A DNA stretch of 64,000 nt from Escherichia coli (GTDB lineage: Bacteria > Pseudomonadota > Gammaproteobacteria > Enterobacterales > Enterobacteriaceae), in assembly GCF_041248615.1 (NCBI RefSeq), contig NZ_CP158426.1; one strand, given 5' to 3'. Below, piece after piece: positions 11,904 to 13,594 of this stretch (its first letter is position 1; every line of letters begins with the position of its first letter). A program made the position numbers and the translations under genes. The notes below the pieces were generated by a model. That model ran no database searches, was not told the origin of the DNA, and saw only the letters and a list, made by a program, of their open reading frames with translations.

Positions 11904-11961
11904 ATGTCTGCACCTGCACTGCCTGATGTCAGAACAGTATTTTGATGAATTGCCAGGGTTA

Positions 11962-12138
11962 CAATGGCACAAATACGGCACAGGAGGAAAATGTGGTGTA
12001 ATTGAATGTGAGGTAACTACTTCACCTTTCAGCCGGGCATCTCACCGAGCACGCGAGCAAAATCGATGCGATTATAAGTCGCAATGGCACAAATACGGCA
12101 CAAGAGGAGAACGTGGTTTACTTAAATGTGAGGTAACT
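11962..12138. repeat. Two 57-bp direct repeats (~89% identical) with 120-bp period next to thrW
   Basis: Copy 1 at 11962-12018 and copy 2 at 12082-12138, both beginning caatggcacaaatacggcaca and ending aatgtgaggtaact. Confidence 0.7.
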
Positions 12139-12150
12139 TATTGATTTAAA

Positions 12151-12226
12151 TGGTGCCGATAATAGGAGTCGAACCTACGACCTTCGCATTACGAATGCGC
12201 TGCTCTACCAACTGAGCTATATCGGC
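12151..12226 (-). tRNA. thrW: tRNA-Thr (anticodon CGT)
   Basis: 76-nt reverse-strand sequence GCCGATATAGCTCAGTTGGTAGAGCAGCGCATTCGTAATGCGAAGGTCGTAGGTTCGACTCCTATTATCGGCACCA with cloverleaf features. Confidence 0.9.
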
Positions 12227-12340: not shown

Positions 12341-13594
12341 TTACGCACGAATGGTGTAATCACCAATGCCGATCCACTTGTAAGTGGTCAGTGCTTCCAG
12401 CCCCATCGGGCCACGCGCGTGAAGTTTTTGTGTGCTTACCGCGACTTCCGCTCCCAGACCAAACTGGCCGCCGTCGGTAAAACGCGTAGAGGCGTTAACG
12501 TAAACAGCGGACGAATCCACTTCGTTAACAAAACGCTGGGCGTTGCGCATATCACGGGTCAGGATCGCATCGGAGTGTTGTGTGCCGTGTTCACGAATAT
12601 GGGCGATGGCATCGTCAAGATCGCTGACGATTTTGACGTTCAAATCTAATGACAGAAACTCATCGTCATACTCTTCGGCTTTAACAGCCACCACCTTCGC
12701 GGGGCCTGCCTGCAACTGCGCCAGCGCAGCTACATCTGCGTGTAATGTCACGCCGCTTTCCGCCATTTGCTTGCTTAATGCGGGCAGGAAGCTATCGGCG
12801 ATGTTTTTATTTACCAGCAACGTTTCTACCGTATTACATGTGCTCGGACGCTGAGTTTTTGCGTTAACGATTACTTTCATGGCTTCAGCGATCTCTGCAC
12901 TTTCATCAACGTAAATATGGCATACGCCTATACCGCCTGTGATCACCGGGATTGTCGACTGTTCGCGGCACAGCTTATGCAGGCCAGCGCCACCACGCGG
13001 GATCAGCATGTCGATGTATTTATCCATACGCAGCATTTCACTTACCAGCGCACGGTCAGGATTATCAATCGCCTGCACGGCACCCGCCGGTAAGCTGCAG
13101 GATTTCAGGGCGTCCTGAATCACCGCCACCGTTGCAGCGTTAGTGCGACAGGTTTCTTTGCCACCACGCAGGATCACTGCGTTACCGGTTTTCAGGCACA
13201 GGGAAGCAACATCAACCGTCACGTTCGGGCGCGCTTCATAAATCACGCCAATAACCCCCAGCGGTACGCGACGACGCTCAAGACGCAGGCCGCTGTCCAG
13301 TACGCCACCATCAATCACCTGCCCCACCGGATCGGCGAGGTTGCACACCTGGCGCACATCATCGGCAATGCCTTTCAGCCGTGCGGGCGTCAGTGCCAGA
13401 CGGTCAAGCATCGCTTCGCTAAGGCCATTGGCACGCGCGTCAGCAACATCCTGGGCGTTAGCGTTGAGGATGATTTCGCTTTGTGCTTCCAGTTCATCGG
13501 CGATTTTTTCCAGCACGCGATTTTTTTCGCGGCTGGAGAGTTGCGCTAATTTATACGAGGCTTGCTTTGCGGCAATGCCCATTTGTTCCAGCAT
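12341..13594 (-). CDS. proA: Gamma-glutamyl phosphate reductase
   Basis: 417 aa, unmistakable ProA sequence. Confidence 0.95.

Follow-up and report, generated by a model that had tools for sequence, protein, structure and literature searches.

In lambda attL (BOP'), which lies beside int, the core is followed by the H' IHF site and then by the tandem P' arm-type sites. The 3' end of the DLP12 int gene reportedly overlaps an att site derived from argU, an observation ascribed to Lindsey, Mullin and Walker in 1989. At thrW, integration has been published for SfX, SfI, SfV, SfIV and P22, with a 46-bp attP for SfI, SfIV and SfV (PMC3851460), and sequential tandem integration, SfX and then SfI, has been described at this gene in Shigella flexneri. 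Panis et al. described argU-intD and thrW-intH as 'opposite convergent' shapes. In lambdoid and P22-like phages with an integrase of the HK75/mEp043/SfX type, int is convergent with thrW, and 14 nt separate its stop codon from a 46-nt copy of the thrW 3' end; the int tail thus doubles as the int-proximal arm of attP. Next to thrW in a 64-kb stretch of Escherichia coli DNA (the window), we find an interval that is very probably a double prophage scar, the trace of two prophages that were acquired separately at the thrW attachment site and have both since been deleted. This reading is based on sequence homologies, on a junction, on the pattern of alleles and on the distribution of the arrangement among genomes.

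The tRNA gene thrW is intact and is the only tRNA called in the window by ARAGORN (Table 1). An earlier note on this DNA had remarked that proA, thrW and a LysR remnant are close together and that integrase and phage genes are missing from their surroundings. This was borne out: all three lie within ~440 bp, and between positions 8000 and 16000 there are 0 ORFs for an integrase or phage gene. The LysR remnant, yagP', is labelled 'LysR substrate-binding domain-containing protein, missing N-terminus' in all related genomes, and in K-12-type genomes it adjoins the distal end of CP4-6. As annotated, yagP' is 231 bp long here and 339 bp long in K-12-type genomes. From paoD to yagP' (7852-11690) this strain has a block that encodes an MFS transporter and an alpha/beta hydrolase, together with a complete LysR regulator at 10228-11112 and a fragment of ykgR; E. 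coli isolates 362 and 118UI share the block, and K-12-type genomes are without it. Farther away, beside yagU, positions 1427-1627 on the - strand match the Rfam IS009 sRNA family (187.8 bits), as expected in E. coli.

Table 1. Features of the thrW attachment site, in window coordinates.
Feature	Position	Strand	Basis or remark
yagP', C-terminal remnant of a LysR-family regulator, 71-aa ORF	11688-11903	+	Far-side landmark of the thrW integration site
Copy 1 of the 57-nt repeat = int1', decayed int tail (about 18-19 codons + stop)	11962-12018	+	HK75 int homology
Putative arm-type Int-binding pair, GGCACAA-N4-GGCACAG, 11 bp apart	11966-11983	+	Copy 1, predicted
ACTT, opening 4 nt of the old linker, as far as the deletion junction 12022|12023	12019-12022	+	
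int2', last 37 codons + TAA of an HK75-type tyrosine integrase	12023-12136	+	Translation, HK75 homology
Copy 2 of the 57-nt repeat	12082-12138	+	int2' 3' end plus 2 nt
Putative arm-type Int-binding pair, GGCACAA-N4-GGCACAA, 11 bp apart	12086-12103	+	Copy 2, predicted
Putative IHF site, AATCAATAAGTTA, matching the consensus WATCAANNNNTTR	12134-12146	-	Overlaps the int stop and the linker
14-nt linker from int stop to thrW 3' end, phage allele CTTATTGATTTAAA	12137-12150	+	Identical to HK75
attP/thrW 46-nt identity block, phage allele, tRNA nt 31-76 (anticodon loop to CCA end)	12151-12196	-	
thrW, tRNA-Thr(CGT), intact	12151-12226	-	ARAGORN; Rfam RF00005, 71.8 bits
proA	12341-13594	-	

Between yagP' and thrW lies a direct repeat whose two 57-nt copies are 89% identical. 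The copies start 120 nt apart, and the 63-nt spacer that separates them (12019-12081) is present once. A 19-nt core of the repeat occurs twice in the 64-kb window, where shuffled sequences led us to expect 0 occurrences. The repeat had been described in the earlier note as tandem and as lying immediately next to the tRNA 3' end. Its length, orientation and identity stood, whereas the tandem arrangement was dropped: the spacer is unique, and Tandem Repeats Finder reported no tandem repeat. Copy 2 does adjoin the tRNA, at a distance of 12 nt, but copy 1 is 132 nt away. Local alignment in the direction of yagP' detected no homology upstream of copy 1 beyond the 57 nt.

Translation of the + strand in the frame that ends with the TAA at 12134-12136 reads HLSAGHLTEHASKIDAIISRNGTNTAQEENVVYLNVR up to the stop. 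This reading frame, int2', takes in the spacer from 12023 to 12081 and most of copy 2, the four nucleotides at 12019-12022 being part of an old linker. Over 12023-12196 the window is identical to HK75 at 171 of 174 positions (98.3%), across the int 3' end, the linker and the 46-nt core, and the identity stops exactly at the start of the phage P arm, the other att arm. For tblastn we used a 67-aa query made up of the 37 window codons and 30 upstream residues from strain R4, with Tyr put back at the R4 stop codon; it showed 97% identity over 67 aa to the integrases of HK75, mEp043, mEp213, mEpX2, HK542, HK446, ECP1 and SfX. The 38-aa tail alone gave no Pfam match because PF00589 spans residues 184-353 of HK75 Int (1.5e-34) and the fragment is outside the domain. 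int2' begins at His350, two residues past the catalytic Tyr in the sequence RYAHL, and has neither the catalytic residues (R-K-H-R-H/W-Y) nor a start codon. Since it starts two codons past the catalytic tyrosine it cannot encode anything active, and it is a pseudogene remnant, not a gene. In R4, the homologous 204-bp stretch is annotated by PGAP as an integrase pseudogene.

The same reading frame bears on the GGAGG-like motif and the very short ORF that the earlier note had seen in each copy. Both are present in the sequence, but they are by-products of integrase codons: the 'GGAGG' is formed by CAG GAG GAA (Gln-Glu-Glu) in the integrase frame, the 'ORF' of copy 2 is the int frame itself, and the mini-ORFs in the repeats are artefacts. 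A 92-aa ORF on the + strand (11866-12144), which spans both repeats in a frame different from that of int (...QWHKYGTGGKCGV...QWHKYGTRGERGL...), is an artefact produced by the duplicated sequence and ought to be left out of annotations. It is extremely unlikely that the repeats regulate a neighbouring gene, be it as a small RNA or through duplicated leader peptides. Copy 1 does contain GGAGG followed by ATG and a 4-codon ORF, and it folds slightly better than shuffled sequences (z = -2.2), but over both copies and both strands the folds differ, with the other z-scores at -0.3, -0.8 and +0.1. Apart from the tRNA, a search of Rfam at permissive E-values produced no match; a weak + strand match over the tRNA to 'Plastid-ycf2' was below the gathering score and was rejected as spurious. 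The interval 11900-12150 contains no promoter-like site, the scan for promoters and terminators being at or below the shuffle expectation, and no + strand gene follows downstream before the convergent tRNA is reached. Moreover, this very part is altered by an indel and several substitutions in the K-12-type allele. The tRNA-only result in Rfam, the inconsistent folds and the lack of a promoter-like site told in the same way against the uncharacterised repeat family that the earlier note had also offered.

The boundary of the HK75-like DNA was defined by comparison with single-copy relatives. Window positions 11900-12022 are 100% identical to E. coli isolate 362, and a query covering 11880-12022 is 100% identical to strain 118UI. 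In both isolates a single copy is followed by the old linker ACTTGATTTAAA and then by thrW. These relatives (loci L007 and L014) read GTAACTACTTGATTTAAATGGTGCC, whereas the window reads GTAACTACTT|CACCTTTCAGCC, with CACCTTTCAGCC being inside int. The resulting junction, ACTT|CACC at 12022|12023, has at most 1 bp of microhomology. Not one of 5,426 complete E. coli genomes contains a 60-mer that spans it, the junction is absent from the GTDB representative genomes, and neither collection contains another example of the two-copy arrangement. As the junction is absent from the genomes searched, the arrangement is specific to this strain or lineage. Intact prophages with an HK75-type int at the same position and in the same orientation exist in other E. 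coli, and intermediate stages of decay are provided by the 204-bp int pseudogene of R4 and by a longer one in Escherichia sp. E1V33, the latter with the same tail allele (NVR and stop) as copy 2.

If the second copy had been produced in situ by slippage or unequal crossing-over, then a 120-nt segment would have been duplicated and no phage would have been involved. The two direct copies do lie 120 nt apart, and both carry the variant AATGTGAGG, where most genomes have AATATGGGG. However, only 57 of the 120 nt are repeated, the 63-nt spacer being single. The spacer, copy 2, the linker and the core are colinear with HK75 at 98.3% identity, as against just 84% for copy 1, and the linker and tRNA alleles by copy 2 are of the phage type, unlike those of the single-copy relatives. 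We give such a duplication almost no credence. The variant shared by the copies could reflect gene conversion rather than independent origin; it is carried independently by E1V33 and by isolates 362 and 118UI.

Of the two phage remnants, copy 1 is the old, decayed one. Its translation, NGTNTAQEENVV-stop-LNVR-stop, is interrupted by an in-frame stop, and it is identical to the HK75 int 3' end at 48 of 57 positions (84%). The K-12-type allele has a 1-nt deletion, and hence a frameshift, in place of the in-frame stop. The block consisting of yagP', 58 nt and copy 1, counted as present at a coverage of at least 80%, occurs in 3,248 of 5,426 complete E. coli genomes (~60%), and ~40% are without it. 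Many element-free genomes carry a lone copy, then a 12-nt linker and then thrW, and in K-12 derivatives copy 1 is followed by the linker, a ~49-nt thrW fragment (ptwF) and the intF gene of CP4-6. The presence of a single copy in many element-free genomes and in K-12 derivatives indicates that copy 1 is an old scar, left by an earlier int that was likewise of this type, and that it has become fixed across much of the species. The earlier note had allowed that the repeat might simply belong to the tRNA flank of all E. coli regardless of prophage state, with no similarity to att sites. Copy 1 is indeed part of the common flank between thrW and yagP', whatever occupies the site, in the 3,248 genomes; both copies, on the other hand, are clearly similar to the phage att region.

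The phage-like sequence extends from int2' into the tRNA gene. HK75 and P22 are identical to the window over 12151-12196 and diverge just beyond. The window has a single example of this 46-nt core, at 12151, and a second tRNA fragment, the attR partner for excision, is absent. Isolates 362 and 118UI differ from the window at two paired T-stem positions of thrW, 12163 and 12177, where the changes compensate each other and where the window is identical to HK75 (the thrW genes compared were L007 6932-7007 and L014 3152-3227). The allele of this pair is U-A in the window, in K-12-type genomes, in HK75 and in P22, and G-C in isolates 362 and 118UI. The linker reads CTACTTGATTTAAA in the nearest single-copy relatives and CTCTTTGATTTTAA in K-12-type genomes. 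At both the linker and the T-stem the window thus has the HK75 type, unlike isolates 362 and 118UI, which supports the view that the 3' part of thrW in this strain was probably supplied by a phage. For thrW the argument compares the window with two close relatives, most E. coli carrying the phage-like allele, and the ancestor might already have had it. Phage traffic may spread tRNA alleles, both changes being inside the replaced 46-nt block.

These comparisons qualify the claim that the attachment site is unoccupied. No element is present, but phage DNA makes up the last 46 nt of thrW and continues for 128 nt downstream. With its thrW core undamaged, the site should remain open to elements that target thrW. 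The proposal that the repeats are remnants of past integration or excision was essentially right, in that both copies are 3' fragments of phage int. As to the mode, prophage deletion fits and excision does not, since clean excision leaves nothing. The two repeats are the int-proximal arm of attP and not copies of the att core, that is, of the duplicated tRNA 3' end.

An arm of attP would be expected to carry binding sites for Int, and candidates can be recognised by their distribution in phage DNA. The word GGCACAA occurs 5 times in 5.2 kb of HK75, against 0.74 expected from shuffles, and four of the five share a strand and fall inside a 230-bp stretch around the att core. Two are in the int tail and two on the other, phage-specific arm, where a GTCACAA motif lies 11 bp before the second GGCACAA. 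The 2 + 1 + 2 layout recurs in P22, where the word is TGTCCCA instead; the P22 att site is said to have been footprinted by Smith-Mungo et al. in 1994. From this pattern we infer that the GGCACAA clusters look like arm-type Int sites. In the window, the putative arm sites fill the first 21 nt of each repeat copy. The IHF consensus has just 8 matches in the 64-kb window, and it is also matched at the homologous position in HK75, P22, K-12-type and isolate-362-type sequences.

The 19-mer ATGGCACAAATACGGCACA is found exactly, beside tRNA genes, in the otherwise diverged integrase tails of Serratia, Shimwellia and Vogesella, of an Enterobacterales isolate and of an unclassified proteobacterial MAG. 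At least two of these integrase loci seem, by eye and from their differing 3' sequence, to lie beside a different tRNA gene. Conservation of the 19-mer is consistent with selection on the DNA sequence, as a qualitative argument only, the alignment being biased towards loci that were retrieved with that 19-mer; about 2 exact matches are expected by chance in the scanned collection. The scan also matched contigs binned to Segatella, Gallionellaceae, Lokiarchaeia and Zixiibacteriota MAGs. The Segatella copri MAG contig (L015) has a clearly HK75-type enterobacterial int and is probably misbinned. In two others (L018 and L021) the 19-mer is near sequences that by eye resemble tRNA ends and might be att arms, and in L025 no tRNA-like sequence was present in the stretch examined around the 19-mer.

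Descent could also have run in the reverse direction, in which case the 57 nt would be native thrW flank that was captured by an ancestral phage, and copy 1 would not be a scar. The tails of thrW-specific integrases are hypervariable while the position of the stop is fixed (P22 ends ...SKNKEGTNNT, HK75 ...EENVVYLNAR and a Klebsiella phage ...GNQAGLKLA, each before the stop), and at least one apparently intact prophage int ends with the chromosomal-type QEETWCI and a stop, so the tail may be dispensable for the protein. All of this would suit a captured flank. Still, we regard it as very unlikely, because the tail, down to the exact 19-mer, is shared with integrases from Serratia, Shimwellia, Vogesella and two further genomes, because GGCACAA recurs on the other att arm of HK75 and so belongs to phage-specific DNA, and because the in-frame stop of copy 1, replaced by a frameshift in the K-12 type, fits a decaying copy. 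Copy 2 would be phage-derived under either reading.

With copy 1 again taken as a scar, one may ask whether it was kept because it is useful. The putative arm and IHF sites would make the site attL-like and would thereby alter integration, excision or superinfection. Copy 2 and the single copies of the K-12 and isolate-362 types all retain the putative arm pair and the IHF consensus in intact form, whereas the 30 nt that lie between these motifs vary. SfI is known to integrate at attL of a resident SfX, and the prophage int with the chromosomal-type tail suggests exchange between phage and scar. Yet only about six alleles were compared, and the 6 differences all fall in the last 36 of the 57 nt with a chance probability of ~0.06. 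Repeated gene conversion by incoming phages gives the same pattern, and ~40% of genomes are without the block. Retention for such a use is, in our judgement, quite unlikely. A more general proposition, which we think unlikely, is that the scar carried by ~60% of E. coli keeps intact putative arm and IHF sites at their native distance from the core, such that the 'attB' of HK75 and SfX would be an attL-like half-site. If this were true, the attL-like scar could alter the efficiency of integration and excision, favour the stacking of elements and allow int tails to be swapped by homologous recombination, and the putative Int and IHF sites would be present twice in this strain.

The strain Z1323CEC0012 provides a separate view of traffic at thrW. 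Its locus (L013 617-49427) shows tandem occupancy of thrW in the order yagP', scar, ~20-nt tRNA fragment, ~13-kb element, full 46-nt core, P22-like prophage, int and thrW, and the ~13-kb element has a tyrosine recombinase of its own, WP_001269639. The int of the P22-like prophage (L009 3960-5102 = L013 48184-49326) is apparently intact and ends with ...NGTNTAQEETWCI and a stop. This tail is the chromosomal, frameshifted K-12-type one, and it is followed by the K-12-type linker. The arrangement suggests homologous exchange between a phage int tail and the chromosomal scar in Z1323CEC0012, and its int tail suggests that the last ~10 residues of Int are dispensable. A 44.8-kb circular record, plasmid pCE-O153H30-A, contains a lambdoid int (WP_001132557) followed by a thrW-type attP (L005 1886-3044), with an Avs2 defence gene adjoining att; this 'plasmid' is probably an excised or episomal prophage genome.

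We propose the following history for the window. In an ancient first step, a phage of the same type would have entered thrW and would later have been deleted, leaving its int tail as copy 1. More recently, and in this lineage, Int would have recombined an HK75-like phage into the site at that end of the core which lies in the anticodon loop, whereby the 3' 46 nt of thrW would have been replaced and the phage int set beside the tRNA. With this second prophage still intact, the locus would have read ...GTAACTACTTGATTTAAA, the 46-nt core and CTGTAGCACC... ahead of the prophage and its int. At least one non-homologous deletion, with its junction at 12022|12023, would then have taken out what was left of the old linker, along with attR (the duplicated tRNA fragment) and all of the prophage as far as the codon past the catalytic Tyr. 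The survivors would be 37 int codons, the stop and the linker, together 128 nt of phage-specific DNA, and the resulting order would be yagP' - int1' - junction - int2' - linker - thrW. We infer the order, the number and the size of the deletions, since no ancestor with an intact second prophage in an isolate-362-type background was retrieved. We expect neither expression nor any benefit to the cell from this interval.

As an instance of prophage decay at a tRNA integration hotspot the feature is ordinary and well understood, its kind is already known, and it has little importance beyond annotation. It does illustrate that a seemingly empty tRNA integration site can hold a readable record of at least two past lysogenies, and that short 'repeats with SD-like motifs and mini-ORFs' by tRNA genes can be explained as remnants of integrase tails and att arms. 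The junction 12022|12023 could serve as a lineage marker.

Among known systems, the attP-int modules of P22, ST64T, SfV, SfI, SfIV, SfX, HK75, mEp043 and mEp213 have the same convergent arrangement of int and thrW and the same geometry, P22 included, in which the int stop is followed by 14 nt and then by the 46 nt that correspond to nt 31-76 of tRNA-Thr. In contrast to these modules, the window keeps 37 int codons and a second fragment of ~19 codons, it has no xis, no other att arm and no attR, and nothing in it can be expressed or excised. The overlap between the int 3' end and a tRNA-derived att site is the same as that at DLP12/argU. With respect to lambda attL, the parallel lies in the order of the core, the putative IHF site at 12134-12146 and the putative arm pair at 12086-12103 on the int side; the recognition sequences differ, being GGCACAA here, and the assignment is made by sequence pattern. 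In the tandem lysogeny of SfX and SfI a new element enters the tRNA-proximal att of the resident one, and in this successive use of the thrW core the window is similar. It differs from both SfX/SfI and the tandem of Z1323CEC0012 in that both of its elements are nearly all deleted and no internal att core remains.

CP4-6, with ptwF and thrW, occupies the same hotspot between proA-thrW and yagP' and has likewise decayed by deletion. The K-12-type locus has the order yagP', int-tail remnant, linker, ~49-nt ptwF and intF, where the P4-like intF is unrelated, lies beside ptwF and is transcribed away from it. The earlier note had pointed to CP4-6 attL and attR for comparison, and an attachment remnant of CP4-6 was considered and rejected: the two loci have in common only yagP', a single int-tail remnant, the linker and a tRNA fragment, which amount to the old scar and the tRNA piece with no CP4-6 DNA. 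The window has no counterpart of intF or of the CP4-6 interior, and its remnant is ~0.1 kb.
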